From NCBI GenBank assembly GCA_963674705.1, contig OY771506.1, forward strand, positions 2,016,001-2,080,000: a stretch of 64,000 nt of DNA. Direction: 5' to 3'. Under the pieces are notes generated by a model. It worked only from the letters and a program-made list of their open reading frames with translations, made no database searches and had not been told where the DNA came from. Source of the stretch: Phycisphaeraceae bacterium (GTDB taxonomy: Bacteria > Planctomycetota > Phycisphaerae > Phycisphaerales > Phycisphaeraceae). The translations under genes were made by a program, and so were the position numbers. Shown in pieces: positions 20,691-64,000 of the stretch. Numbering within the stretch: the first letter of the stretch is position 1; each line of letters begins with the position of its first letter.

Positions 20691-20705
20691 TACTGTGTTG
20701 CTGGT

Positions 20706-30627: not shown

Positions 30628-30668
30628 CGCGGCCCGTTACATCTAACGAGTTTAAACTTGGGAATGCA

Positions 30669-32258: not shown

Positions 32259-32502
32259 CACGACCTCTGACATATTTATCACAAAAATATCTGGAGTATG
32301 ACGTATGTGCCGGCCCAGCGGCTTGTGACCTGCTCTGTAGAAAACCTCGGATGTTAGGCGCTTGTTCTAGTGAGTGCGCAACCGCGTAAGGGTTCAAAAC
32401 ACAGCCGACGTAGAAGTGCATTGGCATCAATGGATTAACGGATGCATCTATCTTTGTTATCGGGATGAACCTGCAAAGCTTCGGTTGGGGAGAATAGCCG
32501 GG

Positions 32503-33904: not shown

Positions 33905-33955
33905 ATCAGCCAGTAGAAAAGGATGTCTATCTGTCGGCTGAGTTTTGAACCCTTA

Positions 33956-34697: not shown

Positions 34698-35099
34698 TCA
34701 CTTAAGTCCCAATAGACTGCTGATGTCCCGCCAGAAAATCCAATCAGGAAAGGAAGCGTTTGCGTGAAAAGCCAAGAACACTTCGATTGCTTGGTCAATG
34801 GTAAACCATTCATTGCTCTTCAAAGCTACTTCGCTACCTGCAAACCGCAACTTTGTGTCATCGGGAAATGCTCTATTTTGTTTTTCTTGATAAGCCCGAA
34901 AATGGTAAAGTGGTTCAACCGTTCGTTTTTCAATCATGCAAGTTGCGCCTCCACCGGCGACTTGCACATAATTGCCGTGGTTATCTTCCAGTGCAGCAAA
35001 CTCATGCCGACCGGTCAACTTGAGTCTTCTTAGCGTTCGCTCAACTTCTTTAGCCGTTGGATTTGTAACCGCAGGTGCGGATTCCATTGTAAGGATCAT
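34698..35099 (-). CDS. Putative immunity protein of the RHS toxin
   Basis: Small cytoplasmic ORF directly after the toxin stop. GAGG RBS before ATG 35099; alternative start 35126 overlaps the toxin end. Ends F..F......P....WRDI. Confidence 0.7.
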   Translation of the reverse strand: MILTMESAPAVTNPTAKEVERTLRRLKLTGRHEFAALEDNHGNYVQVAGGGATCMIEKRTVEPLYHFRAYQEKQNRAFPDDTKLRFAGSEVALKSNEWFTIDQAIEVFLAFHANASFPDWIFWRDISSLLGLK

Positions 35100-35115
35100 G
35101 TAAGCCTCGATATGC

Positions 35116-38100
35116 CTATTTGACATAAATTGTCTGGACTCCGAATATTTTTTGACCGGCTAAGGGCCCATCACCCAAGATAACCGCATCACGCGTGTGT
35201 TGCACGTGTATGTCATTGAGTCGTTGCAGTGGTGTTTTCGACGCAGTTCCGCTTTTGACTTCAATCCCCCACAAACGTCCTTTCGAATCAAGAACGACAG
35301 CGTCATAGCGACGCGTGCTTACCAATCCGCGCACAGTTACCTGCTCACCTACAACATTGACACCTTGGTCTCGTAGTCCTTGGACGACAAGCTTCTCTCC
35401 GGGAGTTCCTGGAGGAGCCGCACCGCGAACACTAGCGAACTTTCCGTCTGGGGTTCGGATGCTTCCGTCGGGATACACGCGAGTGGTTTTCGCGGGTCTG
35501 ACACCTATTGACCCAGAGGTGTCAAGCGCATTGTCAACTTTAGTCCACTGGCCGTCAATTCTAGTGACGACATTGTCTACAGTCATCATATCATCTGTAA
35601 GCCTCAGGCCGTCATCAACCAAGCCGCTACCACGGAAGACCCATGCACCTATAGCCTCACCGCCCATTGTTTCGGTTGCCAATTGGAAGGCATCAACCTG
35701 TAAGCTTGCACTGAAGTATTTGTCTGTGATGCCATAATCCCCAGCCCAGTAACGGTTTTCAACAGTAGGCAATCCATAGCCCATCATTGCATTCATTTGT
35801 GCTTGAGATGAGCTATTGTTGGCGATTGTAGCCAGAAGGTTCCACGCACCTCTGCCGGTATTCTCGATGGCATTTCCTGCGCCCGCATAATAACTAATGC
35901 CGAGATCAAAATATGTATCAGAAAGCACAGGTATCGAAGATAAAGGATCCTGGAAGAACTCGTTATGTATATCGTAAAGATTTGATGGTAGTTCTCCTAC
36001 CAGCACTATGGAGTCAGCTATACGAGGAGATGCTACATAAACATTACTCATATAGGATTTGCTGGTGTATATATCTAGTGTCTGGTATCCAAATTCGTGG
36101 GCATATGGCTCTTGTGCAAGACTTGGAGAGGTCTGCATCAGGAAACCCGCTACTACTCCTCTAAGAACGGTTTCTCGTGTTACAGTGTAATCCTTGTAAT
36201 CCTTAGAATCCCAATCGTGACCAAAGTTTTTGAATAATGCTTCACTCGGCCTTGCATATTCGTCTTGTTTTTTCCAGTATTCCGGGGACTCACGTGCAGG
36301 ATCATTCAGTATGGCGTTGGCTAATCCGGCCCCTATCAATTTGCCACCAAAACCCGACGGATCCACATACATCAGTGGGTTATTCATGACGTACGCATAG
36401 AGGTTATACCCGTCCACATATCCCGCCGGATCGCGTTGCAGGAAGCGGCCGAGGGTGGAGGAGTACATGCGGTTACGGTAGTGCCACAGGCCTTCGGAGA
36501 CGACGGCGGTGTTGCCGGTGGGGTCGGTCTCAGGGTCGTAGCGTCTGCCGGTGAAGCCGTAGGGGTTGCCGACTATTGATATATTGGGTTGTGAGAGGCT
36601 GGTGCGTGTGGTCCAGCTTCCACCGTAGTTGATAAAGGCGGTCATCCCGCCGAAAGGCTGGTAGCGGGAGCGTTCGGTGACGTCGCCGGTCCAGCTTGCC
36701 AGGGCGACAACGGAGTACCGTCTGTCCTGGAAGTAGTAGAGCTTCTCATCGTAGACATGCTCTTCATTGATCAGGAATGCCGGCGAATCGACGTAGCTGT
36801 TGTATGCGTAGCTCTTGGCGTGGATGATCAAGGTTGGTAGACCAGTGCCGTCGGGGTCGTAGAGGTCCATCACAACACGGCTGCCGTCGTATACGTAGAA
36901 GTGCAGCGATCCGCTGGAGCCCTTACGCATCGCAACCCGTCGGTTCAACGCGTCGTAAGCGTATTCGGCCTGAAGCCTCCAAGTGCCGGCGCCCGCAGCG
37001 TCGTACTGCTCTGCCTTGACCAAGCGGTTGGCCCAGTCGTAGGTATACAACAGGTCATCGTTGGCGGGAGAAGACTGATTGGCACCGATATAGATCAGGT
37101 TACCACGGTCGTCGTAGTGGCGATTGGTACTGGGCGCACCGGCACCGATGGCGGTGTATTCGTTGTTGCCGCTGACCACGTAGTTTTCTACCGAGCCGTT
37201 CTGGTCAGTGTTAGACCAGTTGCCGACCTTGTCGTGGTCCCACTCTGTATCGTTCGAGGCGTTGGGTGTACCCGACGGGCCTTTACGGGTTAGCCGGTGT
37301 AGCTCGTCGTAGTCATAGTAGTCGGTGATGGGAGTGGAGCCGCCGATGTAGTCGGTGATGGCTTCGGTTTTGATGTTGCCGATGGCGTCGTAGGTGGTTA
37401 CCTGCCGGAAGGAATTGGTGGTTGGGTTGGCATTGCGATCGTATCGGCGCTCGGATTCACGGCCACGGGAATCGTAGGTGAGTTGGAGAGTGTGGCCGAG
37501 TGTATCCGAGCCAAGGACCTGTGACGTAAGTCGACCGGAGTTGTTATAGGTGTACCGGGTGTCGGTTACACCCATGGATTCGACCTTACTCAACAGTCCG
37601 CGCATGTTTTCCTTGTAGGTGATGGTGCGGCTGATCGTGGGGGTCTGTGGGGTATAGTCGGCGTAGAGGTCCTTGGTGATGATTCGGGAGTCGGGGCTTG
37701 TCCCGGCGGAGTATGTGGTCTTGACGGCGTGGGCCCGGGTGGTGCCGACGTAGCTGACTTCTTCGAATGTCCGGCCAGCGAAGTCGTAATCTAAGTCGAC
37801 GTTGTATGTAACAGGGGTGCTCAGACCGGCATTCGTGTCGCTGGCAGTAGTAATCCTGGACAGCTTGTCGTATTCGAACTCCTGAAGCGGGACCGCGATA
37901 CCGGTTGTATCCTCGACTGCTTCGACACGGTTAAGATTGTCGTAGGTCCGGGTGATTTCTGTGCCGTCACGAAGTGTTGTGATTTCGGCGTTACCGTTCA
38001 GGTCGTACCTGACGGTTTGCACTTCACGATTGCTCAAGTCGGAGGGGCCGTAGTCATAGGTATAGGTGACACGGTTGAGTTCGTCGTAGGTATAGCGGAC

Positions 38101-41100
38101 GGCTTCTTCATCGTCCTCGTCCGTGTCAATCGCTACACGGTATTCTCCGGCTTCGCTGATGTGGTTGCCATCGATGACGGCAAGCAGGTTGCCGTTGGGG
38201 TCGTAACGGAACTTGGTGATGGATTCTTCGGTTTCCCCCAGGGCTTCGATGGTCCGGACGACCCGGCCGTTGGCGTCGTAATCCTTCTGGGTGATATTGC
38301 CGTTGGCGTCCGTGACACGGGTCTGTCGGCCGTTGGCGTCGTACTCGAAGCGTGTGATCGCCTCGATCACCGAGCCGGGGGCCTCGATCAGACGAGTGAG
38401 TTGACCGCGTGCGTCATATTCGAAGACGGTGGGGGCGTCGTTGGGAGTATCTGACTTGATAATCAGGCCTCGACGATCGTATTTCCAAGAGGCGGTTTCG
38501 ATACCGCCCAACTCAGTCTTAATGCGTTGACCGGCGGCGTCGGCGTATGTGGTAGCGGTCACGCCGTATGGGTCTTCACTTGTGACGGTGTTGGTGTCAT
38601 CGTCGTAAGCGGTTGTACTTGTCAGGTTGGTTCCAGAAGGATCGCCGACGATGGTTTTGATGAGCCGATTTAATTCATCGTACTCGTAGGTGGTGGTAAA
38701 TTCATCGGACGTGTTAAGCGCGCGGACTTCCTGAATGACGTTCCCTACGGGGTCGTATTCATACTGCGTGGTGACTTCTTCGGATGTAGATTCGGCCTGG
38801 GTAACCGTCAGAGTCCGTCCGAGCACATCGTAGGTCATCCGGGTGATGATGCCTTTGGGGTCTTTGATGGACAGGGCGCGGCCAAGGCCGTCGTAGGCGG
38901 TGATAATCTCGGGTTCGGATTGGTTCTGGTCATCAAGCAACTTGACGTATTGCGTGACTTTGTAAGGCTCGCCGAAGTCATTATAAGTAGTATAGTTCTG
39001 CTCATTACTACGTGCGTCGACGGTTTGCGTCAGCCGACCATACCCGTCGTACTGTAACTCAACCGGGACAGTGAGGAGCCCTTCGTTATGAAGGGGGGTG
39101 TATTGTTCTACGACCTGGTTGTTCTCGTTGTATTCAAGTGTTGTTCGTTCGCCTAGCGGTGAGACAGAAGCGATTTGGTTACCGAATCCGTCGTACTCAT
39201 AAGTCGTTGTGTAGCCCAAGGCATCCCGTGTCGAGACTTGACGGCTCAATGCATCGTAGGAAGCGTAGGTGGTGAAGCCTTCCTCATCGGTAGCACTGAT
39301 TTGGTTGCCATTGCCGTCGTAGGTGAATGTGCGGGTGTGTCCTAAGGCATTGGTTGAGGCGATCAGTTCATTCCGCTTGTTGTATGCGAATTCGGTTTTC
39401 CTGGTGTAAGAATTCTCGAAGCCGTCGATCAGATACCGGGTCCTTACCAGGTTGCCCGCGGCATCATAATCCTTCACCGTTTTATGCACGGCCGATGATA
39501 CACCGTCCACATGATTGACAGTGATCGAAGAAGTCTTGATACGTCCTAAGGCGTCGTATGTGACCTCCGTGGTGCGGAAGTCGGATGCGGCGCTGGTCGG
39601 ATCCGTAGCATAACTCGCGAGTTTCGTATCTTTCAGGGTTGTCTTAATACGAAGGTTGCGGTCGTCATAGTCATAGTGGACGTGGCTCTCGGGCACGGTT
39701 TCCCATGCGGCAGGACCTGCGTCCGGGTCCCATGCGAACATCATCTCATCGGTGAGATTGCCGGCCTCATCGTAGGTGTAGGTAGTCCGGCTCAGGTAGT
39801 CTGAGGCAGATGGAGTACCTGTCGTTTGGTTGACAACGGTCGCACCCTTGATGCGTTCTTCCCGCAACCTACCGAGGGAGTCGTGCTCATACTCGATGGT
39901 GCGTATATTGTGTGAATTCGGGTCGTCGCTGTTACTGATAGTCTTGATCTTGCGGTTTAGCCGATTGTAGACATACTCGGTCGAGAGAGATTCCACAAAT
40001 ACAGGGGACTCGCTGGTGTTATTCTCGCCGTAGTATCCGATGGTTTCAAGAGTCAGGTTACCACGCTCGTCATATTCGAACTCGGTAGCACGCTGATCGC
40101 CCCATGTTTCCCACCGGCGGATAAGACCGTTAGCTTTGTCATAGGTGAAACGCGTGGTACGTTCTTCACCGTCAGCAATAGCGGTGGTTTCGGTGAGGTT
40201 GCCGGCGCCGTCGTATCGGTTGCGAACTTTGTCTCCCAATGCGTTGGTTGTCTGAATCAGACGATTCAGTTCATCGTACTTAAATGTTGTGGTGTTGCCA
40301 TTCGCATCGGTAGTTGCGATGCGGTCTCCCACGGCGTCATATTCATAACTTGTCACATGCCCGAGTGGGTCGGTCTGGGTTGCGATACGCTCGAAGTTCC
40401 GGCCGTAGAACGGCGTGGTATAGGTGATAGATGAGACCGCTTCAAGTGGATTCTTTGTTTTAACGAGTCTGCGATTCTCATCGTATTCGTTAATGGTCAC
40501 CCCGCCCGCGGCATCGACCAGCCGTGTTGGCTGACCGTAGGCATTCAGTTCGACCTGAGTGGTGTTGCCGTCCGGATCGGTTGTGGCGATTACACGTCCG
40601 AAGTCGTCGTATGTATAGTTTGTGAATCGTCCGAGTGGGTCTTTTGTGCGGACGTTATTCAGGCCGTGTATGTCGTAGAAGTATTCTGTAACGGCGTTAT
40701 CCAAGTCGCTGCCGGAACCGTCATACTGACGGATTTTCTCCGTAAGCATGATCAGATTCCCGTACTTGTCGTAGTCATATTCGGTAGTGTGCTTTTCGGA
40801 ATCTAGTGATGCACTAAAGTTGCCTGTAAATTGGAGTTCGCCATTGCCATTGAGTACCGGAACGCCGTCCGCATCGACGATTAATTCCTTGACGTATATA
40901 CCGATATGGCGTTTGTCAACCAGGATATCGATACCGGGGTCGCTGCTGTTGTACTCGAGATAGGTCTCCAAAACATCGATGTGGTAATCATCTCCCCCAT
41001 CATGCTCGATCTCGTCTACCTGGGTGTATTGATATTCCGGACGGTTCTCGTCGTTATAGATGGTTGCCTGGGTATCACCTTCAGGCGTGGTGAATGAAAT

Positions 41101-44100
41101 CAGATTGCGTTTATCATCGTATTGAAAGACAGTCCGGTTGCCGTTGCCGTCGGTCTGAGCAATCAGATTGTGCTGTTCATCATACTCACGGTACTCGATG
41201 GCTCCATCGCGCGTATTAGCGCGGATCATATCGCCGTTCTTATTCCAGAAGATCTTGCGGTAGAAACCGGCTTCGTTCCACGTTTCTGCATAACGGTTCA
41301 ACCAGCTGTATTGGAAGTAGAATGCATCGTTGTTGCTGTTGATGTGGTGAGATACCGTATCGTCCTTAAAGTAATAGATCTCCAAGTAATCCCCTGTCGG
41401 AAGGATCTGCTTGGACATGTTGTGGTTATTCAGGACATTGTCTTGATTCTTCAGGTACTCGTAGCGGTAGACATTGCCTTCGAGGTCCTTGAACCAGATC
41501 AGATCGTCGCCGTCGTAGCCGTATTGTGTTGACCGCCCGTTGTAATCAGTAACACGAATGACATGATCGTCGTCGTTGTATGTTAAGGTCAGGCTCCGGC
41601 CCAGTGGGTCGGTGATCCTTGTTATATTCAGATCTGTGTCGTATGTGAAGGTCAGGGTGTGATCTAGTGCGTCGGACTTCTCTTTCAGTTGTCCGTCGGC
41701 ATTGAACCGATAAACCCTGCCGTCGTTATGGTGAATGGCGTAGCCATTCGTGTATGTCGTATCGGGCTTGAGTTCGAAAGTCGAGCCTGGGGGGGCCTCA
41801 TATACACCACTGCCCTGATCTTCGAAACGATAGACCTTGCGACTCGCGTCCGAGTAGATAACGTGAGTGAGTTGGTTGTTTTCCGAATCCGTCAGGAAGG
41901 TCAATGTGTCTGCGTGGGACCATCCCCAGCCGAAGCCAAACGGGCCGTTATATAATATGGTACTGCCATACCGTCTGGTGACTTCCAGGGGCATGCCTCG
42001 GGATCGAATCATTAAATCGGCGGGTTCCTCAAGGTAAAATTCGCCGTTGAAAAGGTCGACGGGATCACCACCCGAGACGATTATCACATCGCGATTGGTG
42101 GTGTTGGATGTTTCGCTGGAGATATTCTGGATGTGAGTTGTGGTAGTACCGCTGGCGTTATCCTCTGTGACTGTCGACGCAGTGTAGTTTTTCTTCTGAA
42201 AGTCTGAAGATAAGTCAGGCGTCCCAAGGTTCGTATTGAGGGTAGTCGAGGAGGAGGTATTCAGGCGTGTAACGGTGTCATAGTCATACCAGGACCTACC
42301 GCCGTTGAACTGCCCGAAGAGCCAATTTGTTGATCCTTGTTCGGATTGGGTGATGCGAAGGTCGGATTCGACATACGGATTGCCTTCAGGGTCTTTATAC
42401 ACCACGAGGTCGGTGGGGGTCGTGGTGTTCACCCCGTCATAGCCGTGGAAAGTAAGGGAAATGGTGTCGACCCCAGTGGTGATTACGAAATCTCCAGAAG
42501 TACTTGCGTCGAGTAAGAGATTCCCATCGGCGTAACCCGCTTGGATTCCATCGATGGTGTCGTAGTAATCCTTTAACTCTTGAATGCGGTCCAGACTGAA
42601 GTCGACCTTGGCAACGAGCACGTCGCTGGTGATCGGATCGAATGCAACAAGTGCTGTATCGTTGTCGTACTTCCATTGCCCGGAGTCGAATACAACAGCA
42701 ATAAAGTGGTCGTTGTTGTTAGCGTTAGGCGGAGAGCTGTTAAAGCGTTCATGCACAGATTCGGCACTGTACATGATGTACCCCACCCCGGTAGCGGTGT
42801 CGCGTGCGGCGATAACGTTACTATGACTTAGTTTGTCCACACTGGTCGCAGTGGCAGTAACGTCGTTATAAATCTTTGCTTCAATTGCGAGCGCAGAATC
42901 AGTTTCGCCAGGGATAATACTCTGGATGTCAGCGAGTGATGTACCGCTGCCGATGGTTACTATATCGATGCCATCGCTAATAGCGGCAAACAGCCCTTCG
43001 ATCGTCCCAAGCGCAGGCGTCCCCTGCCAGTCTTCGAAGATAGCCGATTCATTGTACGATGCGGCGGTCCCCACAACAGTGCTTTGGAATAGAGCCAGTT
43101 CGTCACTGCCCTTGAAGATCTCCGGCGATGCGGCGTTACTCTTATAGACGTAACTGGACGCGAACAGTGCGTCGATCCGCCAGGCGGGGCTGACATGTCC
43201 AAAGCTCGCACTGTTGTACTGGCCGGTTGGAACACTATCTTCTTCATCCGGGTAGGTCCAGATCAATACCGCCATGCGATGTTCATTGAAGCCGGCATCA
43301 GGGAAAGTGTTGTTGACCGTCAGTTGGTAAGGCGAGTGATGAACGCGGTTAGTCCAAAGCAAGCTATCGAGCCGTCGTGCGTTGCGTTCGAATCGCTCGT
43401 TATAAGCCTCGGTCAGCAGGTCACTCACACGACCGAGGTATAGTTCGTATGTGTCTGGGCTGTTGTTGAAGGATAGTCGTGTTGCCAGCTCATCAAGCTC
43501 TTCTGCGACTTCATAGATTCGCTCGCGAGACGCGGCCAATGGATCGAGTGCGATGTTGACCAGGGCGTTAGGTCGTATGGATGGACGTTCTGTATAAGGG
43601 ACGGTGCCAAACCTGTAGCCGACGGTAAAGCTGTCGGAGAAAGTAACCGTCTCATCATAAGTTTTCTCTGCTGCTTCCAGGAAAGCGCCGGTACCAGAGT
43701 TCAGGATCTGGCCATCCAGTTTCAATCGTGGTGAGGCGGTGTTGTGTTCGGTGCTTTCAAGATCGGTATAGGTACCTGTATTGAAGTCAACAACTAAGCG
43801 TCGACCGGCGACCTGAGGGAGCATAACTCTGGTCTTAATCAGGTTGGCTTCTGCCAGGGTTGTATCTTTTGCATCCTTTACTTGAACGCCGTTTAAGGCT
43901 TTGTTGTAGACTCTAACATCATCGATTAGGCCCGAAAACCAGTTACCGCTACCGGTGGTTGTCGCGAAGGCGGTGCCGTTGAGTCGACCACCAAGGCCGC
44001 TCATAGTATCCGTGGTCCCATCAACACCTATCACATCTATCGGAAGAGTATTATGTGTATGGTGCACGCTTGCAACGGAATCTCCATCGAGTCTGATTCT

Positions 44101-46713: not shown

Positions 46714-46786
46714 TGTTCACACATCCTGCGGATGGGGCGTTGTTGTATCGAGATTCGCAGTGATCAAATCGTTGTGTTTAGGTGTA

Positions 46787-52702: not shown

Positions 52703-52788
52703 GATCTACGTTCCTTAAATCTCTACCATGTGTAATGGCACAATGGTCAAGTCGAATCTATTACAAACCCCTGTTACGTTGCTGTGAG

Positions 52789-54084: not shown

Positions 54085-54171
54085 CTTGGTTCGTCGTTTG
54101 TGCTTTTGCGTGTGCACCGTATGTCTCCTGGACACTGTGGTGAGGTATTTATCTTTAAAGATCGTGGGTAA

Positions 54172-55836
54172 TCACTTGTCTGCGCTGTTGTTCGAGACCT
54201 GAAGCTGCATATCGTTGACTTCACTGAGGGTTGGCGAATCACTCAGCTTGGAGGCTTCTGCTGCCAAGATGGCCTCTGCTTTGTCTGAACGGTTAAATCG
54301 CATGTCGTCTGCCACGATCCACTTAAGAACCGCCAGACGGTCTTGTTCATCTGACGCTGCCGATAGTGCATCTACAGCCCACTCGCGTGGTGTTTTTGTA
54401 TCGGTAGGGTCGTTAACGGTGAGTCCGACTGGTGATGCTGCATCGGCTCTCATGAGCATCCACCGGGAACGCTGGTTCATGGGAAGCGATTCGTTTGCGG
54501 CTTTGTCTTCCAGTTCGCTGCGCCAAAGTGCAGCTTGTGCTGTTCCGCGGTAGCGCCAGGTCAGGAGCTTGCCGATTTTAACCCGGGGATTACCCTGATC
54601 ATCTACAAGCCGGGTACGGAGGTCCTCTCGTAGTTGTTCAGTATCAAACAAGCTGGCCATGTTCTCATAATGCCAGTGGAACCCATCGATCGAATCTGTT
54701 TCTTCAAAGCGATCAGCCACATAATGGGCAAGTGTTTCTAATTGATCTTCATCAAGACGTGGTGCTAGCGAGCGGAGTACGCGTGCCAAGCCCATCCCTT
54801 GCGAATCAGCCACGGCCAGCAGGCTTGGGTCGATCGCCAATCGGTCTCGGAGGTGTTCAATGAGCCTGCGCTCGGCTTCTCGTGCTTGTGGGTGTGTGCG
54901 TGCCAGGAATATCCAGTCGTATAGGGCATTGAATTCGCGGTATGTTGCGTTCTGCATCCACACGTTGCTGTTGAGCAGCCATGTGAGGGTCCATTCGGTA
55001 ACCAGCGATTCATCTATCCCGGCCTTACGAGATTCCTTGCGTAGGTAATCGATGTTCCAGACGGTAAATCCCAGGAATGCGTCTTGATTCGATCCTACAA
55101 GATCCATGATCTGCGAGGCGATGTCTTGATCTTTTTCGGCGTGATCAGTACTTGAATTGGATGTGATTAATCGGAGCTTTGCGTAGAGTGCAGTCGCACT
55201 ATTCCCATCCGATTCTGCCATGAGGTTATCGATATGGTTGATCAGGGTCTGACGTGTGTTTGACATGTCCTCATCAAGCGTCTGCTCGACATCATTTACC
55301 CAACCAATCAGCAAGCCCAGTTCGGTATTCCCGGCCCGATCAAGCATGCTGGTGTTGGTTAACAGATAGGTCTTCGTCCACTCACTTGTCGTGTCTGATG
55401 TTATATCCAATTCTTTTGCTAGACGACGCAAACGCCATACATCCCAAACACCTAGGCTGGAAAGCTCGCCACGATTGCTTTGAATCCGGTCGGTTAATGC
55501 GGTCGCCAGAATGTCGTGACGACTGCTATCAATCCGGTCTTGGAATCGCTCGGCCAACTTGGTGAATTCAGATAAACCAAGTGAAGCCTCCTCGCCACCA
55601 TCATCTAGATATAAGGTCCAAACATGATTCGTGAGTAACTCACGATCTGTTGCGGCTAAAGATGCCCAGGTTTCAGCGCTTAATGAAGAGAGTACTTCAT
55701 TGGGCGTCCATTCCTGCCAGTCTTTTGGCAGGTCGGCCGATACCCTTCCTCCAATACAAACGATTATGACACACGCCAGAGTACGAATGAACCTTTTTAA
55801 TAGGTTCTGATGATTCAATTTCATGATTATGAACAC
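54172..55836 (-). CDS. Secreted alpha-helical hypothetical protein with an internal repeat
   Basis: Signal-like IRTLACVIIVCIGGRVSA; duplicated segment VW....LR...........EWT...LL; paralogous C-terminus. Confidence 0.75.
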   Translation of the reverse strand: MFIIMKLNHQNLLKRFIRTLACVIIVCIGGRVSADLPKDWQEWTPNEVLSSLSAETWASLAATDRELLTNHVWTLYLDDGGEEASLGLSEFTKLAERFQDRIDSSRHDILATALTDRIQSNRGELSSLGVWDVWRLRRLAKELDITSDTTSEWTKTYLLTNTSMLDRAGNTELGLLIGWVNDVEQTLDEDMSNTRQTLINHIDNLMAESDGNSATALYAKLRLITSNSSTDHAEKDQDIASQIMDLVGSNQDAFLGFTVWNIDYLRKESRKAGIDESLVTEWTLTWLLNSNVWMQNATYREFNALYDWIFLARTHPQAREAERRLIEHLRDRLAIDPSLLAVADSQGMGLARVLRSLAPRLDEDQLETLAHYVADRFEETDSIDGFHWHYENMASLFDTEQLREDLRTRLVDDQGNPRVKIGKLLTWRYRGTAQAALWRSELEDKAANESLPMNQRSRWMLMRADAASPVGLTVNDPTDTKTPREWAVDALSAASDEQDRLAVLKWIVADDMRFNRSDKAEAILAAEASKLSDSPTLSEVNDMQLQVSNNSADK

Positions 55837-55881
55837 CTTTTGTTGATGTAGACTCGTTCTGAACGTGTCCTCTTATTGCGT

Positions 55882-56028
55882 GCGTAATTACCGCGCATCA
55901 TTGATCGGAAGCCAGATGCTTGTGACCAATGAATGCAACATGCATGGCAGATTGATGAGTGTTGACTATCAACCTGATTGACGCACCGGCAAAACACTTG
56001 CCGCAAATAAGCGCGTAACTACCGCGCA
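55882..56028. repeat. Pair of 16-bp near-palindromic direct repeats in the divergent intergenic region
   Basis: GCGTAATTACCGCGCA (55882-55897) and GCGTAACTACCGCGCA (56013-56028). Confidence 0.7.
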
Positions 56029-56547
56029 CGTGCACTTACAGCTTTAGTTGTATTTAGGATCCTCCCTGATCCCCCATCCAGATAAGATAGCACAACGTAC
56101 CCACACGATCAGATTCAGGCTGGTAATGCCGGAAACAGTGGGCTAATGAACCCCCAAGATAATGGTATAACACGGCGAGAAGAAGGCAAACATTAAAGCC
56201 CGGCTCTCTTATGATGACCTATGTATCAGCAGCCGATATCAAAGTCAAGGATATTTTTATTCCATCTGAAAATTCAAAGGCATTATCGTGATTACTTCAT
56301 GTCGTCAGGTATAGACGTCTAAGACAATCTTCTAATACTATGTAGATTGTCGGATGTCGAAGATCGGCAAGTGTACATGCGCTTATACGAGACCAGGAGA
56401 ATCTGGAATGTGGTCCAGATGCTTCTTTAGAAGATGAATCTACCAAGGATTATATTCTCAGAACAGCAAGTATATGGCATGTATTACCAGAACCTTCTTG
56501 CTAAACTATATTGGGCGACTTAGGGATGCCCTTCGGGAGTTATATAC

Positions 56548-58800
56548 ATGCCCAGGCTCACAGTTACTCTGATTGCTTTCTTATGCTTGGCAACTTCAGC
56601 CGTAGCACCTCTTCGAGAAGCCATCGCGCAGGTTCCGAACAACGACGATCCGATGATCGAATTGACTTTCAGTGAGAATGTCGAGCTGAAGGTGGTGATC
56701 GATTATGTCGCCAAGCGGCTGGATATGAATGTGTTGTATGACGAGCAGGTGGGGAACAAGCTGGTAACGATCAAATCGCCGGGGCCTGTGCCGCGCAGTT
56801 CGCTGTTGGGATTGTTGCAGAGCGTGCTGCGGATGAAGGGGCTGGTGCTGGTGGATGCGGACGAGCCGGGCTGGAAGCGTGTGGTGATCGTCGGGGAGAT
56901 GGGGGCCTATGCGAAGGCGGATAAAGACCCGCAGTCCGGGGCTCGGGCGGTGACGCAAGTATTTCGTTTGAGTAATCTGGATGGCAAACAAGCCGAGCAG
57001 ATGGTGGTGCCTTTACTGACCCGTCCCGGCGGCAACGCGATCGGTATTCCTAGGCAGCCGATCGTGATCGTTACGGACTTCGCATCAAATATGCCACGCA
57101 TTGAACAGGTGTTGAGCCTGATTGACGAACCACGCAGCGGTGTGGTGTTGCGGTCGTACACGGTTCAGCATGCGGCGTTGACTGAGTTGTCGCGGCTGGT
57201 CCAGGAGCTGATCAGTGCCCGTCAAAAAGCTGAATGGGGATCTTCGCAAGACAGTGGTTTGCAGGTCACGCTTACACCTGTGCCGCACGCGAACCGGATC
57301 GTGGCGGTGGGTGTCCAGCAGCAGGTCGAAGAAGCGTTACGGTTGCTGCAGGATTTGGATGTGCCCGACCGGCTGATCACGCGTGCGTATCAGTTTCAGT
57401 ATACGACGCCGACGCAAATCAATGATCTCGTGCAGGGCCTGCTCGATCCGGCGATGCCGCAGACGAAGTACCGCCAGGTGATCGATGAAGACCTGGGCCT
57501 GTTGGTTGTCGTCACGACCGAAGCGATCCACAGTCAGATTGAAGCGTTAGCGAACGATCTGGATGTGGCGCCATTAGAGGACGAGAATCCGGTTCGCATC
57601 TACCGGTTGTTGAACACCGAAGCGGCGGATGTGCTGGCAACGATCCGGACGCTGGAAAGCGGCGTGGGGTTTGATAATTTTCTTTTAGCGGAAACCGGGG
57701 AAGGCGGCACCGGCGTAGCCGATAGCAAGCAACCGGGCTCAAGTCTTACCACCACTGCTGTTGATAGAAAGAGTAATTCAACATCGCCACCCAAACGTTC
57801 TTCAACGGACCGGATACTCAGCAATCTCGATGCGAGCGGGGGGGCACTTCTGCCTTCGGGCAATGTGGATGTACGGGTTGCGGTTGATGAGCATACGAAT
57901 AGCATTCTGGTCATCGCGCCGCCTGCTGAGCAAAAGGTTTATGAACGCCTGATCGAGTTGTTGGATCAGCGCCGGCCACAAGTGATGATCGAAGCGGTTA
58001 TTGTCACGCTGGATACAAGCAATGGTTACACGTTTGGTGTGGAGATCGCTGGTTCGGGGTCTGCAGGGAGCCTCGGGGGGGACTATCTGGTATTCAGCTC
58101 TTTCGGGCTCAGCGAGCCAGACACGTCGACCGGGTCACTGGCATTGATCCCTGGATTGGGATTCAACGGCACGCTATTGAATTCGGATGTGGCGGATGTG
58201 GTGATCAGGGCGCTGCGCACGAACGGCCGAGCAACGGTGATGTCCGCGCCGCGGATTCTGGTGAACGATAACACTGCGGGCACGTTGAGCAGCGTCGCGG
58301 CGGAGCCTTACGCGGCGATTGTGGATTCATCCAACAACACCTCCACCACAACACTCGGCGGCAATTCCGAGGCCGGTACGACGATTACCGTTACGCCGCG
58401 AATCAGCATGGATGATTACCTTCAGCTTGAATATAACATCGAGCTGAGTAACTTTACCGGCGATCGATCTGCAAACCTACCGCCGCCAAGTCAGCGCAAC
58501 ACGATCCAGAGCGATGTCACCATCCCCGACGGTTACACGATCGTGGTCGGTGGGATCAACCGTATCGATAATTCGAACACGGAATCCGGCATCCCCGTGC
58601 TCAGTGAGATTCCCGTCCTCAAACATTTATTCAGCAGCCAGGATGTCAGCCACCGTGAGCAGACGTTGTTTGTGTTTATCCGCCCGGTGATCTTGCGGGA
58701 CGATCGTTTCGCTGACCTGAAGTATTTGTCCGGCAGGGATCGTGACCTGGCGGGGCTGGATAGTGAGTATCCGAGCAGTGAATCGTTGTCCGTTTATTGA
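56548..58800 (+). CDS. gspD: Type II secretion secretin
   Basis: Signal peptide; repeated N domains; LDQRRPQVMIEAVIV, MSAPRILVNDN, GIPVLSEIPVLKHLF, LFVFIRPVIL. Confidence 0.93.
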   Translation: MPRLTVTLIAFLCLATSAVAPLREAIAQVPNNDDPMIELTFSENVELKVVIDYVAKRLDMNVLYDEQVGNKLVTIKSPGPVPRSSLLGLLQSVLRMKGLVLVDADEPGWKRVVIVGEMGAYAKADKDPQSGARAVTQVFRLSNLDGKQAEQMVVPLLTRPGGNAIGIPRQPIVIVTDFASNMPRIEQVLSLIDEPRSGVVLRSYTVQHAALTELSRLVQELISARQKAEWGSSQDSGLQVTLTPVPHANRIVAVGVQQQVEEALRLLQDLDVPDRLITRAYQFQYTTPTQINDLVQGLLDPAMPQTKYRQVIDEDLGLLVVVTTEAIHSQIEALANDLDVAPLEDENPVRIYRLLNTEAADVLATIRTLESGVGFDNFLLAETGEGGTGVADSKQPGSSLTTTAVDRKSNSTSPPKRSSTDRILSNLDASGGALLPSGNVDVRVAVDEHTNSILVIAPPAEQKVYERLIELLDQRRPQVMIEAVIVTLDTSNGYTFGVEIAGSGSAGSLGGDYLVFSSFGLSEPDTSTGSLALIPGLGFNGTLLNSDVADVVIRALRTNGRATVMSAPRILVNDNTAGTLSSVAAEPYAAIVDSSNNTSTTTLGGNSEAGTTITVTPRISMDDYLQLEYNIELSNFTGDRSANLPPPSQRNTIQSDVTIPDGYTIVVGGINRIDNSNTESGIPVLSEIPVLKHLFSSQDVSHREQTLFVFIRPVILRDDRFADLKYLSGRDRDLAGLDSEYPSSESLSVY

Positions 58801-58826
58801 TCCGTTCGCGTGCAAGGTAGATAGCT

Positions 58827-60566
58827 GTGGCAAATAGCATCCTGTTAGAACTGGCCGAGGGGGTTCAACGGCAAGCCGAGGTTGAAGGCTCATCGCTTTC
58901 CGATGATTGGCTGGATGCTGACAGCGTGAGTCGGGCGCGTGATCCGCTTGCCTTACTGATTAAGAGTGCGAATGAAAAGGGCGTGAGTGAGGCGGCGGTG
59001 TGTCGCGCTGTGGCAGACGTATTAGGCGTGCCTTATATAGATAGCCTGGCGGGTTGTGCGGTATCGGCTGACTTCATGGATGCGATCCCGATCCACTTCG
59101 CCCGCAGGCATCAGGTCGTGGGGCTCGCTGGTGGGGCGAATGATGAACTCGAACCGATCACAGTGGCGACGGCATCACTGAGCACGGTTGATCGTGTATA
59201 TGAACTGAGCCGGTTCCTCGGACGCAAGGTGCGGCCGGTGATTGCGACTTCCAAGCAGATCCAGGCATCGATCAACGTGGCATATCAGAAACAGGAGGGG
59301 CAGGCGAAAACCTTTATCGATCAGATCGATCGCAGCGATGTACTGGATGAAGTCTCGCGTTTATCAGAGCATGAAGACCTGCTCGATGTTGATAGCCGGG
59401 CCCCGGTGATTAAGCTGGTGAATCTGATTTTGTTTGAAGCAGTCAAGGCGCGCGCTTCGGATGTGCATATTCAGCCGTATGAAGAAACGCTAGTCGTGCG
59501 TTTGCGGATTGATGGCGTGTTGTACGACACGTTCGATGTGCCCAAGCACCTTCAGGATGAAGTCATCAGCCGGATGAAGGTGATGGGGAAGATGAACATC
59601 GCCGAGAAGCGTCTTGCACAGGATGGTCGTGCCGCGGTGCAGATCGGCGACCGGATTATTGATCTTCGCATCGCTTCGCTACCGACCAGTTTCGGGGAAC
59701 GGGTTGTGATCCGTCTATTAGATAAAAGCTCGGAGTTATTCACACTCACAGAGTTGGGCATGCCGGGCAAGACGCTTGAGCAGTTCCAGTCTCTTATCGG
59801 TTACGAGCATGGGCTGATCCTGGTGACGGGTCCGACGGGCAGCGGGAAGACGACGACGTTGTACGCTGCATTGCAGCAGGTAAACGCGACGGAGCGGAAC
59901 ATCCTGACACTTGAGGACCCGATCGAGTATCAGTTGCCGGGCATCAGCCAGACACAGGTGAGTGAAAAGAAGGGGCTGACGTTTGCACATGGATTGCGAA
60001 GCGTATTGCGTCAGGACCCGGATATCATCATGGTCGGCGAGATCCGCGATCACGAAACAGCGGTGATGGCGATCCAGTCCGCGTTGACCGGTCACCTGGT
60101 ATTTTCGACGTTGCATACCAATGATGCGCCCAGTGCGGTGACGCGTTTGCTTGATCTTGGTGTGGAGCCTTACCTGGTTGCAAGTTCGTTGGTGGGTGTG
60201 TTGGCGCAGCGGCTTGTCAGACGTGTATGCCGATCGTGCGTGACAGCATATGAGCCGACAGAGAGAGACTTGGTAAAACTGGGATTAAGTCCGGAGGATA
60301 CCGACACGGCTGGAATGCGCAGCGGCGGAGGGTGTGAGGTATGCCGACAAACGGGATACGTCGGGCGAGAAGGCATATTTGAACTGTTAACGGTAAACGA
60401 TGCGGTGCGTCATTTGATCCAGACGCGCGCCAGTGCATCGCAGATAGGCCGGGCCGCCGTAGAGTCGGGTATGGAAACATTGCGCGACGCCGGGCTGGAG
60501 AAAGTGAAGCGAGGCGTGACGACAATCGATGAAGTGGTGCGTGTGACGACGAGGATGCAAGCCTGA
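58827..60566 (+). CDS. gspE: Type II secretion ATPase
   Basis: ASDVHIQP, Walker A GPTGSGKTT, TLEDPIEY, LRQDPDIIMVGEIRD, STLHTNDA, CxxC...CxxC. Confidence 0.95.
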   Translation: MANSILLELAEGVQRQAEVEGSSLSDDWLDADSVSRARDPLALLIKSANEKGVSEAAVCRAVADVLGVPYIDSLAGCAVSADFMDAIPIHFARRHQVVGLAGGANDELEPITVATASLSTVDRVYELSRFLGRKVRPVIATSKQIQASINVAYQKQEGQAKTFIDQIDRSDVLDEVSRLSEHEDLLDVDSRAPVIKLVNLILFEAVKARASDVHIQPYEETLVVRLRIDGVLYDTFDVPKHLQDEVISRMKVMGKMNIAEKRLAQDGRAAVQIGDRIIDLRIASLPTSFGERVVIRLLDKSSELFTLTELGMPGKTLEQFQSLIGYEHGLILVTGPTGSGKTTTLYAALQQVNATERNILTLEDPIEYQLPGISQTQVSEKKGLTFAHGLRSVLRQDPDIIMVGEIRDHETAVMAIQSALTGHLVFSTLHTNDAPSAVTRLLDLGVEPYLVASSLVGVLAQRLVRRVCRSCVTAYEPTERDLVKLGLSPEDTDTAGMRSGGGCEVCRQTGYVGREGIFELLTVNDAVRHLIQTRASASQIGRAAVESGMETLRDAGLEKVKRGVTTIDEVVRVTTRMQA

Positions 60567-61783
60567 TGCCTGTTTTTGCGTACAAGGCGTTATTGAGTGG
60601 CGAACACGGACCGCAGGCCGTGACGGGCACACTCACAGCCGATTCACCCCGACAAGCACGGGACACGCTTCGATCGCGCGGCTACACCATCCAGCATGTC
60701 AGCGAGCACCGTGAAGCGATTGGTTACAGCCAATGGCTAAGAAAGCTGCCGGGGCGTAACTACCAGACACAAACCACGATATTTGTCGGCGAACTGTCAA
60801 CACTGCTGGGTGCGGGCATCCCGTTGATCGATGCGATCGACACGATCCTGAAACAGCTCAGCGGGGCGTTCCATAACGCTATCCTGCAACTGCGGGACCG
60901 TATCGCAGCAGGGACAGGTTTGGCCGAAGCGATGCGTGAGCAGCCGCGTGTGTTTGATGAGTTGACTGTGACGATTACGGAAGTCGGGGAAAACGCAGGC
61001 ACACTGGATACGGTGCTCGATCAATTAGCGCGGTTCAAGGAAAGATCTCTGCAATTCAAAGGGCGTATCGCCAATGCCTTGATCTACCCCTGCATCGTAC
61101 TGCTACTTGGGGTAGGCGTGAGTCTGTTTTTAATGACGTATGTGTTGCCTAACATGCTTAATGCATTGGTTGAGGCGGACCGTGAATTGCCTTGGATAAC
61201 GAAACTGGTCAAGGGCTTGAGTGATTTTCTGCTCTACCGTTGGTGGGCCGTGTTGCTGGTTGTTATGGCCGGTGTGCTGGTGTTTGGGATGGCATCGCGT
61301 TCGATGCGGTTAAAGATGCTTTGGCACAGGGCACAATTGCGATTGCCTGTACTTGGTGTACTGATCCGCAAACAGGCGATCGCGCGGATAGCGATGGTGA
61401 TGGCGACACTGCTGAAGTCGGGCGTGGAGTTTGTTCGTGCGATTCAGATCGCGCAGCGGACCACGCAGAATCTTGCCTTACGGCAGGCGATTGCGCAGTG
61501 TGAGGCCGCGGTGCAGGCCGGTCAGGACATCGCGGACGGGCTTGAAGATACCGGGGCGTTTCCCCCGACGGTGTTGCAGATCTTTTCTGTGGGTCAGCAA
61601 TCCGGCAAGCTTGAAGCGATGCTAGACAGGCTGGCCGGCGATTACGATCAGCAAGTGGCACTGGCATCACAACGTGTCGGGGCGATGCTGGAACCGATGC
61701 TTATTCTTGTCATGGTGATGATGGTGGGAGCGATCCTCTTCGCGACGATCCTTCCGATCCTGGAGACTGCCAATGTGTTGTAG
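60566..61783 (+). CDS. gspF: Type II secretion inner-membrane platform protein
   Basis: LSTLLGAGIPL, GENAGTLD, ALIYP, GQQSGKLEAML, LEPMLIL; follows gspE with an overlapping start. Confidence 0.95.
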   Translation: MPVFAYKALLSGEHGPQAVTGTLTADSPRQARDTLRSRGYTIQHVSEHREAIGYSQWLRKLPGRNYQTQTTIFVGELSTLLGAGIPLIDAIDTILKQLSGAFHNAILQLRDRIAAGTGLAEAMREQPRVFDELTVTITEVGENAGTLDTVLDQLARFKERSLQFKGRIANALIYPCIVLLLGVGVSLFLMTYVLPNMLNALVEADRELPWITKLVKGLSDFLLYRWWAVLLVVMAGVLVFGMASRSMRLKMLWHRAQLRLPVLGVLIRKQAIARIAMVMATLLKSGVEFVRAIQIAQRTTQNLALRQAIAQCEAAVQAGQDIADGLEDTGAFPPTVLQIFSVGQQSGKLEAMLDRLAGDYDQQVALASQRVGAMLEPMLILVMVMMVGAILFATILPILETANVL

Positions 61784-62225
61784 CGGTAAGCAAAATCAAA
61801 TACGAACGAGTCATAGACGACAAGCCTTTTCGTTGATCGAGATCCTTGCGGTGCTCGTGCTGATCGGGTTGGCGGCAGGGCTGATCGCTGTGAACGTCAG
61901 GCCGCTGATGTCCAAGGGCAAGCAGAACGCTGCCAAGTCGGATGTCAGCACGATCGTCAGTGCGCTCGAGGCGTATTACATGGCGGTTGGCGAATACCCG
62001 AGTAATGATGAAGGGCTCGAAGTCCTGAAGCAGAAGAACGAACACTTTGATGAACCGCTTCTGACTAAGGGATTGATCGATCCCTGGGGAAGGCCGTACC
62101 AGTACAACCAACCGGGTAGCGGTGATGAACCTTACGAAGTGTTCAGCTTTGGCGCGGATGGCCGAAGCGGTGGCGATGGACCGGATAAAGATATTCGCAG
62201 TGATGATGAACCGGAACAGGAATAA
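61773..62225 (+). CDS. gspG: Major pseudopilin
   Basis: AFSLIEILAVL; YPSNDEGLEVL; DPWGRPYQY; SFGADGRSGGDG...DI. Confidence 0.93.
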   Translation: MCCSGKQNQIRTSHRRQAFSLIEILAVLVLIGLAAGLIAVNVRPLMSKGKQNAAKSDVSTIVSALEAYYMAVGEYPSNDEGLEVLKQKNEHFDEPLLTKGLIDPWGRPYQYNQPGSGDEPYEVFSFGADGRSGGDGPDKDIRSDDEPEQE

Positions 62226-62744
62226 ATGCTACATTCCACCCAACGAGCATTTACACTTATTGAGGTGACAGCCGTACTGGTGCTGGTTGCTTTGCTATCG
62301 ACTGCGGCTGCTTTGTCGCTCAAGAGTGCTTATCGTGGTTCACAGATGAGCGACGTTGTCGCCCGCGTCAGTGCGATGGACCGGACGGCCCGGCGTCTAT
62401 CTATATCCCAAGGGACGGCTGGAAGCATCATTATCGATCAAGCGGAGGGAAGCCTGCGGTATAAGCAAGCGGGTAAGACGAAGGATGAATTGCTCCCCGT
62501 CGTGTTGCCCGCTGACTTTCAGATGACGTCGGTCTACATTATGGGTGCGGCTAAGCATGAACACACAGTCATACCGTGTTCGCGGGAAGGCAGGACGCCG
62601 AGTTATTCATTAACGCTTACAGGGCCCGGAGGATCATCGCATGTGCTGATGGTTGCCGGTTTAACCGGGCAGGTATTGGAATTGGAGCCGGATGCGAGCT
62701 TCGAAGTTGACAACTTGTTGTCCGCGCGGCCTGACACTGATTGA
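62226..62744 (+). CDS. gspH: Minor pseudopilin (GspH-like)
   Basis: AFTLIEVTAVLVLV; position directly after gspG. Confidence 0.7.
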   Translation: MLHSTQRAFTLIEVTAVLVLVALLSTAAALSLKSAYRGSQMSDVVARVSAMDRTARRLSISQGTAGSIIIDQAEGSLRYKQAGKTKDELLPVVLPADFQMTSVYIMGAAKHEHTVIPCSREGRTPSYSLTLTGPGGSSHVLMVAGLTGQVLELEPDASFEVDNLLSARPDTD

Positions 62745-63252
62745 AGTGGTGGCGGGTCTTGCGCTGATGGGCACGCTGTTGGCCGGGATGCTGACCGCCA
62801 AGAGCCGTTTTACGCGCCAACAGGTTCAATCACAGCGTGTGTTGGTTGCTGTTGAAGCACTGGATGCTTTACTCATCGAGCGTTGGGACGAGTTCCATGT
62901 AATACAGCGCGGTTCGCATGGCGACTTTGATGGTTTGGAAGACATGACCTGGCGAGCGTCAATTGTTACGAGCGGGGCGGCAAGCGACTGGCACTGTCGG
63001 GTTATCCGTATCGAGGTATTAGACCAGGTGGAGCGTTCGAGAGGTGAATCGCTTGCCAGTGTTGAACTCTTGGTGCCCGACCCCGTCTATCTGAAAGAGT
63101 TGGCGAATAAGGAGGATGCAGAAGCAGATAAAGAGCAGGACAATCCAGAAACACGGGAATCGCCGGGTGAGAAGCAGGAGCAAGAGAATGCGCCTGCTTT
63201 GCCGGATAATGAAGCAGAACCCGGGCCGGTTGTGCTGGGGGTATCCTTATGA
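62692..63252 (+). CDS. gspI: Minor pseudopilin (GspI-like)
   Basis: GLTLIEVVAGLAL; gene order. Confidence 0.65.
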   Translation: MRASKLTTCCPRGLTLIEVVAGLALMGTLLAGMLTAKSRFTRQQVQSQRVLVAVEALDALLIERWDEFHVIQRGSHGDFDGLEDMTWRASIVTSGAASDWHCRVIRIEVLDQVERSRGESLASVELLVPDPVYLKELANKEDAEADKEQDNPETRESPGEKQEQENAPALPDNEAEPGPVVLGVSL

Positions 63253-63818
63253 ATAGGTGTGGTGGCTTTACATTAATTGAAGCACTCGCCGCGACCGCGC
63301 TGGCGGCAATCATGATGACAGCCGTCATGACGGTTGTATCCGCACTTGCTCATGATGATTCACGGCAAGCCAATGAGTCTGAACGTGAATCGTGGCAACA
63401 GCGCATGATCGAGTTGGTTGAGCAAGACCTCCGCTACAGCGATTCGGTCACGGATCAGGGCGATGGTGTCCTGATGACAGGACATCTTTCGCTCGATCAA
63501 GATACGCTTACGCCGACACATCGGCCGGTGCAGGTTTCGTATCACATTCGTAAGTTTGCGGATAAATCCTGGTTGATCCGTTCGCAGACAGACCTAGAAA
63601 GCCGGGCATTGGACAATAGCTGGTCTGAGGTGGTGTGCTCGGGAGTCCGTGCTATTAAGGTGATGAATGCCCAGCAATCCACATCATCCGCCGCTAATGA
63701 TAAGGACCAAACAGATTCGTTGATAGATCAAGCAGTGGCAATGGATACCGCTGTCGTGACAATTGTCTGGGATACGCCGGATGAAGATGCAACGACGTTT
63801 AATCTTGTTTTACGTTGA
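63249..63818 (+). CDS. gspJ: Minor pseudopilin (GspJ-like)
   Basis: GFTLIEALAATAL; ...EQDLRY; gene order. Confidence 0.7.
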   Translation: MNRCGGFTLIEALAATALAAIMMTAVMTVVSALAHDDSRQANESERESWQQRMIELVEQDLRYSDSVTDQGDGVLMTGHLSLDQDTLTPTHRPVQVSYHIRKFADKSWLIRSQTDLESRALDNSWSEVVCSGVRAIKVMNAQQSTSSAANDKDQTDSLIDQAVAMDTAVVTIVWDTPDEDATTFNLVLR

Positions 63819-63821
63819 AGT

Positions 63822-64000
63822 ATGATGCAATGCAGCAGTAAAACATCCCGACGTGGCTTCATCCTGGTGCTGACCTTGATGCTTTTGTCCATCGCGGCGG
63901 TAGCGATGGCGGCGACGGCAAGGTCGAGCACCGATCAGGCGGTGGCTGCGGTTCAGGCGCGGCGTGATTTACAGCGGGCATGGGCCAATCGCAGCATCCG
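63822..64000 (+). CDS. gspK: GspK-like pseudopilin, runs off the window
   Basis: Hand translation MMQCSSKTSRRGFILVLTLMLLSIAAVAMA...; lacks Glu5, as is typical of GspK. Confidence 0.7.
   Translation, partial: MMQCSSKTSRRGFILVLTLMLLSIAAVAMAATARSSTDQAVAAVQARRDLQRAWANRSI

Follow-up and report, generated by a model that had tools for sequence, protein, structure and literature searches.

Recurrent association of HEL-RHS-immunity modules with a distinct type II secretion system lineage in Phycisphaerae

How does a giant polymorphic toxin with a signal-like N-terminus leave a cell that has two membranes? The question is raised by a locus of a Phycisphaeraceae bacterium (GenBank assembly GCA_963674705.1, contig OY771506.1), analyzed here in a window of 64,000 nucleotides (contig positions 2,016,001 to 2,080,000; coordinates below are those of the window, and window-equivalent ones continue its numbering past its end). 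Five co-oriented open reading frames (ORFs) on the minus strand (55836-54172, 54135-52789, 52702-46787, 46713-35116 and 35126-34698) encode two helical secreted proteins of 554 and 448 residues, an adhesin-like protein of 1971, an RHS toxin of 3865 and a predicted immunity protein of 142, and face the gspD gene of a type II secretion system (T2SS) across 711 bp. An earlier note, made from the letters of this DNA, had described this arrangement, which our analysis reproduces, and had proposed that the T2SS is dedicated to the export or display of a multi-subunit RHS nuclease toxin, with an immunity-like gene beside it. We find that a module of HEL (a domain common to the two helical proteins), RHS and immunity genes recurs in Phycisphaerae next to a distinct lineage of T2SS, and that the association is larger than one locus. 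As far as sequence allows a judgement, export of the toxin through the adjacent, extra T2SS is somewhat probable.

The T2SS operon lies on the plus strand in the order D-E-F-G-H-I-J-K-C-L-M-TPR lipoprotein and runs past the end of the window. The genes D to K named in the earlier note are all there, as D, E, F, G and three pseudopilins with N-methylation motifs, followed by gspK at the window's edge; the four genes that complete the operon beyond gspK had gone unmentioned. The secretin gene gspD (56548-58800) encodes N0, Secretin_N and Secretin domains, with PF00263, PF03958 and PF21305 over their cut-offs and TIGR02517 at 302 bits, below its cut-off of 351. The ATPase encoded by gspE (58827-60566) reaches 630.5 bits with TIGR02533 (cut-off 630.25) and scores higher with this family than as PilB (630 vs. 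554 bits). Next come the platform gene gspF (60566-61783; PF00482), the major pseudopilin gene gspG (61773-62225; TIGR01710 over cut-off) and the minor pseudopilin genes H (62226-62744), I (62692-63252) and J (63249-63818), with weak gspH/I/J matches below cut-off. Both gspK (63822-64826, leaving the window at 64000) and gspM (window-equivalent 66743-67276) are assigned from position and N-terminal pattern, neither having a family match. The C-like gene (window-equivalent 64792-65382) and gspL (window-equivalent 65382-66746) match PF11356 and PF12693, respectively, at expectation values (E) of 4e-5 and 3e-5, below the curated cut-offs, and the gene for the TPR lipoprotein (window-equivalent 67286-67915) closes the operon. 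This order is kept in most of 51 neighbourhoods; in four loci gspD faces away from the rest, and two are lone secretins. The cassette holds no prepilin peptidase gene, two PF01478 matches being located elsewhere in the genome. The separate T2SS whose presence the earlier note had raised does exist, at 1,653,244-1,664,685 of the genome and in the canonical order E-F-G-H-I-J-K-L-M-C-D (minor genes named by position). In the canonical-order clusters read, those of the source genome and of genome G405, no full-length RHS gene adjoins. G405 (L047-L050) carries two near-identical clusters of canonical order that include a TPR lipoprotein; behind each lie a gene for a 1538-residue product, the N-terminus of which looks non-ribosomal peptide synthetase-like, and genes for other secreted proteins.

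Recurrent linkage of RHS and partner genes with gsp clusters, as expected under the earlier note, was found: in total there are 21 RHS-gsp loci in 19 genomes of the class Phycisphaerae, from at least six families. The closest gspD relatives sit in records titled Phycisphaeraceae or Phycisphaerales, and eight close gspD loci all have the same cassette as far as read; two of them repeat the window layout, three have a co-oriented FN3 protein and three have neither. The same five-gene layout with different tips is present in G401 and G403. G401 holds two further cassette copies, whose GspD is 42-43% identical; each stands immediately behind an RHS gene from a different lineage (about 25% identity). 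Its two near-duplicate cassette copies with different RHS proteins (L034-L037) include one RHS protein with a HINT domain before the tip. At the nearest sister cassettes (L027:3787-9570, L030:4179-9722 and L028:3-2525; GspD identity 70% and 63% for the first two) the toxin arm is replaced by an FN3 secreted protein, about 1900 residues long in two of the three loci and cut by the contig end to 840 residues in the third.

In the class as a whole, the C-terminal half of GspD matched 99 of 401 genomes at E<=1e-45 (G665 enters these class-wide tallies only). Neighbourhoods were assembled for 41 of the 61 matches at E<1e-83 outside the source genome, those left out being mostly short contigs; L077 (16 kb) and L089 (3 kb), read upstream only and showing no RHS gene, were also kept out of the count. 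Six of the 41 had less than 8 kb upstream and no RHS gene, leaving 35 informative loci chosen by gspD similarity alone, and at 10 of these, from five families, RHS genes lie within about 9 kb of the cassette (G495, G471, G500, G629, G447, G636, G459a, G477, G739 and G001). YD repeats or core were confirmed by Pfam or NCBIfam in nine of the ten; the RHS gene of G447 is called from BLAST and a custom core profile. As a rough estimate of the background, at least 1484 core matches in the 401 genomes (at most 13 per genome being counted) amount to about one per Mb, or a few percent per 30 kb. BLAST labels of RHS on a 1034-residue protein of the source genome and on proteins of 608 and 1592 residues in G403 were dropped for want of an RHS core.

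A GspE tree from a quick search places 48 cassette ATPases in one clade (Shimodaira-Hasegawa-like approximate likelihood-ratio support 100), apart from the five GspE/PilB paralogues of the source genome. Within it, a fixed-position subclade of 13 members has an RHS gene at none of its 12 informative loci, most lying about 6 kb from a gene for a protein of about 1015 residues, a TonB receptor in the one scanned, vs. 15 of 29 informative loci among the other 35, whose position is variable (Fisher p 0.0014, overstated since kin are not independent). The RHS label requires 7 changes on the tree, vs. 13.2 when shuffled, and at least four of them are forced by the starred branches.

The second line of evidence comes from the two helical proteins (54172-55836 and 52789-54135), for neither of which a Pfam or NCBIfam family was found; generic TPR-like leads from feature searches gave no family either. 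Both end in a common domain of about 160 residues, which the earlier note had not remarked on and which we named HEL (54175-54651 and 52792-53295). Its model comprises eight helices (predicted local distance difference test score, pLDDT, 89.6) and resembles generic alpha-solenoids only, with no Foldseek match at E<=0.001. A HEL profile found the domain in 15 proteins of 12 loci, all with RHS gene and cassette, at values from E 1e-7 to 2e-34 when one group at a time was left out, and gave no further match below E 4 among the neighbourhoods and the 14,410 ORFs of the source genome. HEL matches 604 clusters at 50% identity; in 149 of 150 members it lies no more than 100 residues from the C-terminus, a hydrophobic N-terminus is present in 88 of 100 members (at least 400 residues, Met start), and 51 of 53 members scanned have no Pfam match, the two matches falling outside HEL. 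We regard HEL as a previously unclassified family of putative helper proteins, and the domain is usable as a marker to find more such systems.

HEL matched 27 of the 401 class genomes. New among the matches were 29, which fall into 26 regions, and 25 of these regions were fetched (the weak matches in G707 and G245 are doubtful, and three others, the second one of G739 and those of G331 and G212, were left out). The next gene encodes an RHS protein in 18 of the 25, one region being cut and one doubtful, and a non-RHS secreted protein in the remaining five. In eight of the 25 regions gsp genes adjoin (G483:C11, the second modules of G477 and G629, G617, G542, G612, G628 and G652). In G542, from another family, gspD lies opposite HEL, adhesin and transglutaminase-RHS giant as in the window. 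In G629 and G477 a HEL-RHS module stands on both sides of the cassette. In a sample of the whole phylum, HEL matched 8 of 351 genomes. The five non-RHS proteins behind HEL (L134:3416-5737, L135:7099-9462, L153:549-2024, L145:1188-4205 and L150:6860-8671) are 492-1006 residues long and without Pfam match; their N-termini are similar and their C-termini divergent, and, as in several linked RHS proteins, a Cys directly follows the predicted AxA cleavage site. They are possibly another polymorphic family and, judged from these sequences, might hint at what HEL recognises. A conserved gene of about 280 codons without Pfam match (B_295) precedes HEL or RHS genes in G401 (L034-L037), G447, G739, G001, G136:C3, G628 and G652.

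The toxin itself (35116-46713) is built, according to Pfam and NCBIfam, from a signal-like N-terminus, a transglutaminase-like domain (residues 156-245; 45979-46248; PF01841, E 5e-11), two LamG domains, DUF6531 (residues 1549-1628), a shell of YD repeats (PF05593, E 1.5e-104), an Rhs-associated core (residues 3371-3454; TIGR03696, E 1e-17), a DPSG motif (36352-36363, from residue 3451) at the end of the core and a tip. The motif is an autocleavage site in RHS proteins and is predicted to be one here; 411 residues lie beyond it. Since the transglutaminase motif reads GNEWD in place of the GDC.[DE] of apparently active relatives, Glu replacing Cys, the domain is predicted to be catalytically dead. 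The best PDB matches are Tse5, Rhs and Tre23, and a homologue search with the N-terminal half returned one relative besides the protein itself. The shell is 35-52% identical in all five homologous giants, 51-52% in three orthologues with unrelated tips, and the tip of the window toxin is matched in none of the five. Signal-like N-termini, judged by a hydropathy heuristic and not by SignalP, are present as the earlier note had read them on the four large proteins: the best 11-residue hydropathy is 2.88, 1.83, 2.42 and 2.83 for the proteins of 554, 448, 1971 and 3865 residues, and only 1.21 for the immunity-like protein. By the same heuristic none of the four has an internal transmembrane stretch. 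An N-terminal hydrophobic stretch was counted in 19 of 20 RHS ORFs of related loci, one of which was not shown to be linked to a cassette, vs. 12 of 400 internal windows.

Markers of other routes were sought as well. Pfam and NCBIfam scans of the five proteins bore out the earlier note in giving no PAAR, VgrG, WXG, SpvB/TcdB or type IX secretion (T9SS) match; SpvB/TcdB domains were sought with Pfam in these five proteins, and no genome-wide search for a TcA partner was made. No TpsB/ShlB transporter adjoins the locus in a Pfam scan of the window and the downstream DNA, and profiles for TssC (PF05943) and VgrG-type proteins (PF05954) matched none of five genomes, including the source genome, while the controls matched. 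Two variations of the RHS gene may be added. In G001 (L083:10329-18753) and G636 (L062:1-9021) two ORFs together make up the shell. The break falls at one common motif (..WYDDA.R.TH..DYG..SP), and a hydrophobic, signal-like stretch of its own opens the second ORF; we predict from this a natural two-chain shell, each half being exported separately. In G636 another gene, B_295, sits between the halves. Orphan RHS-core cassettes (290-610 residues) stand in strings behind full toxins in L142, L159 and L059 (G629), L055 and L057.

The tip (35119-35481) carries the motif RYD..G.EVKSG, invariant in a five-row tip alignment, and is 43-50% identical to the C-termini of seven unrelated proteins (RHS, haemagglutinin-repeat and TcdB-domain). 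No Pfam Tox-REase family matches it. The model of the tip (pLDDT 64) returns PD-(D/E)XK nucleases in most of its top Foldseek rows, with E>0.07 and none at E<=0.001. Motif and model together lead us to predict a PD-(D/E)XK-like nuclease of the restriction-endonuclease (REase) fold, in line with the earlier note. The 142-residue immunity protein (34698-35126; 133 residues in the protein database, from a later start) has no signal peptide and its gene overlaps the toxin stop; it has 25 homologues besides itself, many in Burkholderiales, and no match in a PDB sequence search. Among the rows listed, tip homologues have immunity homologues 9 bp behind on two Ralstonia megaplasmids. At orthologous loci the immunity gene is replaced by unrelated genes, tip and downstream gene being exchanged as a pair, and the homologous giants end in other REase-like tips (G401A and G402, from motifs), an AHH-type motif (G403) or a Tle1-like lipase (P0002). 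By sequence, tip and small gene have the make-up of an ordinary toxin-immunity cassette, carried here by a giant protein. The immunity protein looks Imm1-like and its G403 counterpart DUF1629/Imm11-like, but Pfam gave no match for either.

The adhesin-like protein (46787-52702) consists of Ig/PKD domains, an FG-GAP propeller and a C-terminal alpha/alpha-barrel-like domain in Pfam and NCBIfam scans. Of 88 loci searched that contain this transglutaminase domain or lie next to it, 31 gave a match to the latter region. The region directly precedes transglutaminase-RHS genes in L148, L169, L171 and L173, and in L170 (3-16949) it is fused with the transglutaminase domain and the RHS shell in one protein of 5648 residues. 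Such adjacency and fusion suggest that adhesin and RHS protein are likely two parts of one unit; their pairing occurs without gsp genes too, and L171 and L173 have ordinary genes beyond the adhesin. The orthologue in G401 (L040:7455-13555) consists of two overlapping ORFs of 381 and 1653 codons.

These observations are best explained by the following route, which we consider somewhat probable. The toxin and its three partner proteins would cross the inner membrane by Sec and fold in the periplasm, where the product of the next downstream gene would be served by the HEL proteins as its substrate-specific chaperones or adaptors. The cassette secretin would then export toxin and adhesin-like partner, working as one unit, whose LamG and FG-GAP domains may bind glycans of the target or of the own surface. 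The shell would cleave itself at DPSG, the tip would cut DNA in the rival cell, and the small cytoplasmic protein would protect kin. In a broader form, to which we give less than even credence and which we put forward tentatively, the whole gspD-first, TPR-lipoprotein-ended T2SS lineage would be an RHS toxin delivery machine, with HEL as toxin-specific adaptor and counterpart of the Eag chaperones; if true, RHS toxins would have a new, named route in place of type VI secretion systems (T6SS), for cargo of up to 420 kDa. Such cargo would, to our knowledge, be the largest of any T2SS.

Several observations weigh against these readings. Known T2SS substrates range up to about 150-170 kDa, and the folded toxin would be one of about 420 kDa; the second T2SS of the genome could also export it. 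HEL followed by RHS occurs outside the class without gsp genes in the 4-9 kb upstream (G200 and two G143 contigs), and inside the class, in G412, G136:C3 and G767:C50, without a cassette in 13-28 kb upstream; in five of the 25 regions, as said, HEL precedes other secreted proteins. For the transglutaminase-RHS giants of G136:C54 and G222:C47, 36 and 27 kb were read and contain no gsp genes and no HEL, and a 5596-residue RHS protein of G401 likewise lacks both in the DNA read. HEL is absent from all 80 metagenome loci that carry this transglutaminase domain; 32 of them extend 5 kb or more upstream, and on that side none of these has gsp genes, a single weak ATPase match being found downstream. 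Many of the 80 are not RHS loci, and a layout like that of the window would not fit into a 10-kb flank. Finally, 14 of the 29 variable-position loci flank FN3, DUF1800, PKD, CBM96, SdrD-type or unrelated genes. Since there are toxin loci without cassette and cassettes without RHS, neither depends on the other everywhere, and HEL is the tighter partner of RHS. Of the dedicated T2SS proposed in the earlier note, the recurrent link with RHS toxins therefore stands and exclusiveness does not.

These last loci speak for what is the most serious competitor of export through the adjacent T2SS, although we consider it unlikely: the cassette could be a general accessory T2SS of mobile islands that exports whatever it travels with, its linkage with RHS genes reflecting co-transfer, and the toxin could use either T2SS. 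Insertion-sequence genes stand on both sides of the locus, sister cassettes (L027 and L030) flank FN3 proteins of about 1900 residues, and the genome has two T2SS, all of which would fit. Yet the same cassette clade has met RHS genes of two unrelated lineages, on at least four separate occasions forced by the tree; the canonical-order clusters of the source genome and of G405 lack adjoining full-length RHS genes; and G401 retains three copies of the cassette, every one of them paired with a separate RHS gene. The closer tie of HEL to RHS (18 of 25 regions) than to gsp (8 of 25) suggests a further alternative, that HEL and not the T2SS sets the route, the toxin taking a T2SS-independent path (vesicles, lysis or another translocator) while gsp serves other cargo; the HEL-RHS pairs outside the class, with no gsp in the short stretches read, and the strain that substrate size puts on a secretin point the same way. 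We think this improbable: the HEL fold is modelled as soluble and all-alpha and contains neither a barrel nor a membrane segment, of the 17 regions lacking gsp 13 reach a contig edge less than 7 kb upstream of HEL, and three RHS-cassette loci (G001, G636 and G500) have no HEL in the DNA read. That the giant serves chiefly as an adhesin of the cell surface or as a filament for kin recognition, with no working toxin at its tip, as the prevalence of LamG, FG-GAP and Ig domains in the two large proteins and the weak nuclease fold matches might suggest, is very improbable, given that tip and downstream gene are exchanged together among orthologues (AHH-type, REase-like, Tle1-like lipase), that their homologues adjoin in Ralstonia and that the D-EVK motif is intact.

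Export through a T2SS is not without precedent for this protein class, and the earlier note's statement that no characterised example of the route was known has to be corrected. In Zhang et al. 2012 (PMC3482391), toxins with signal peptide, inactive transglutaminase and RHS repeats, as well as REase tips, are described and signal-peptide toxins are filed under 'T2SS', a term used there for the general secretory pathway; the neighbourhood section of that paper links transport genes for T5SS, T6SS and T7SS (type V, VI and VII secretion systems), PVC (Photorhabdus virulence cassettes) and MuF, and none for gsp. The window toxin shares with these an N-terminal signal, the dead transglutaminase, RHS repeats, a variable tip, the toxin-immunity order and an REase tip, and differs by the linked gsp operon and the partner family. 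Bcn-A of Xanthomonas perforans, an RHS bacteriocin, is inactive in an xpsD mutant (PMC7259588), and the T2SS route for RHS proteins therefore has a precedent. According to the same paper, Bcn-A has 1398 residues, is described without signal sequence, is encoded in a five-gene locus without gsp genes and was tested in a heterologous Xanthomonas host with the ordinary xps T2SS; common to both systems are an RHS toxin with accessory and immunity genes (the accessory genes being compared by description only) and the need for a T2SS secretin, predicted here.

T6SS Rhs effectors (PAAR-Rhs, VgrG, Eag) have in common with the window toxin a YD shell, an Rhs core, a cleaved polymorphic tip, an immunity gene and an upstream helper gene, whereas the window toxin lacks PAAR and VgrG, has a signal-like N-terminus and a secreted alpha-solenoid as helper. 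Acinetobacter CpaB and LipB, substrate-specific T2SS chaperones encoded beside their substrates (PMC4713064), resemble HEL proteins in that a helper gene adjoins that of the T2SS substrate; they are membrane-anchored at the N-terminus and their substrates are enzymes, whereas HEL falls into none of the known families and is a putative chaperone. Giant genes behind T2SS-like loci in Omnitrophota (bioRxiv 10.1101/2023.11.21.568195) likewise encode giant proteins of the PVC group (Planctomycetes-Verrucomicrobia-Chlamydiae) next to gspD/E/F-like genes, but these are membrane-anchored, are not RHS toxins with immunity genes and belong to loci with rcpC. Bacterial teneurin-like toxins (PMC13018210) likewise have Sec signals and a YD shell and are reported to lack obvious delivery machinery, in contrast to the gsp cassette here. 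Both the toxin type and a T2SS-dependent RHS protein thus have precedent; the linked cassette and the HEL family were not found described in the literature searched, whose coverage left most subscription papers outside.

As regards the surroundings, the source genome is a single contig of 5.54 Mb (96.6% complete), and the RHS gene of the window is its only one. The toxin arm has a GC content of 51.4%, the gsp arm 54.9% and the genome 56.6%; in the divergent intergenic region (55837-56547) it is 43.7%. This region holds an 18-bp motif (56057-56074) that has a single copy in the source genome at up to two mismatches and is retained, among the neighbourhoods scanned, in the divergent region of both orthologous loci, G401A and G403, and no others; such conservation makes it a possible regulator or sigma-factor site. 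The insertion-sequence genes, absent from the earlier note, comprise integrase-core and Mutator-family transposase remains beside the immunity gene (32374-34449) and a second element after the end of the gsp operon (window-equivalent 68236-69333). Further to the left (17685-32258) lies a sugar-use cluster with GntR, DUF1559, LamG/PEP-CTERM proteins, three BNR (sialidase-like) proteins, GH2, a DHDPS-family lyase and a sodium:solute symporter; the same neighbours are found in G401.

How signal-peptide-only polymorphic toxins cross the outer membrane of double-membrane bacteria has so far been, for the most part, a matter of assumption. Across the class studied here, such toxins are accompanied by one specific T2SS lineage and by a partner family that is new. 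For planctomycetes, of which five genomes tested gave no T6SS marker, the system is a candidate weapon, and if the proposed export is true, the T2SS would gain a role in interbacterial killing and the size limit of the secretin would be put to the test.

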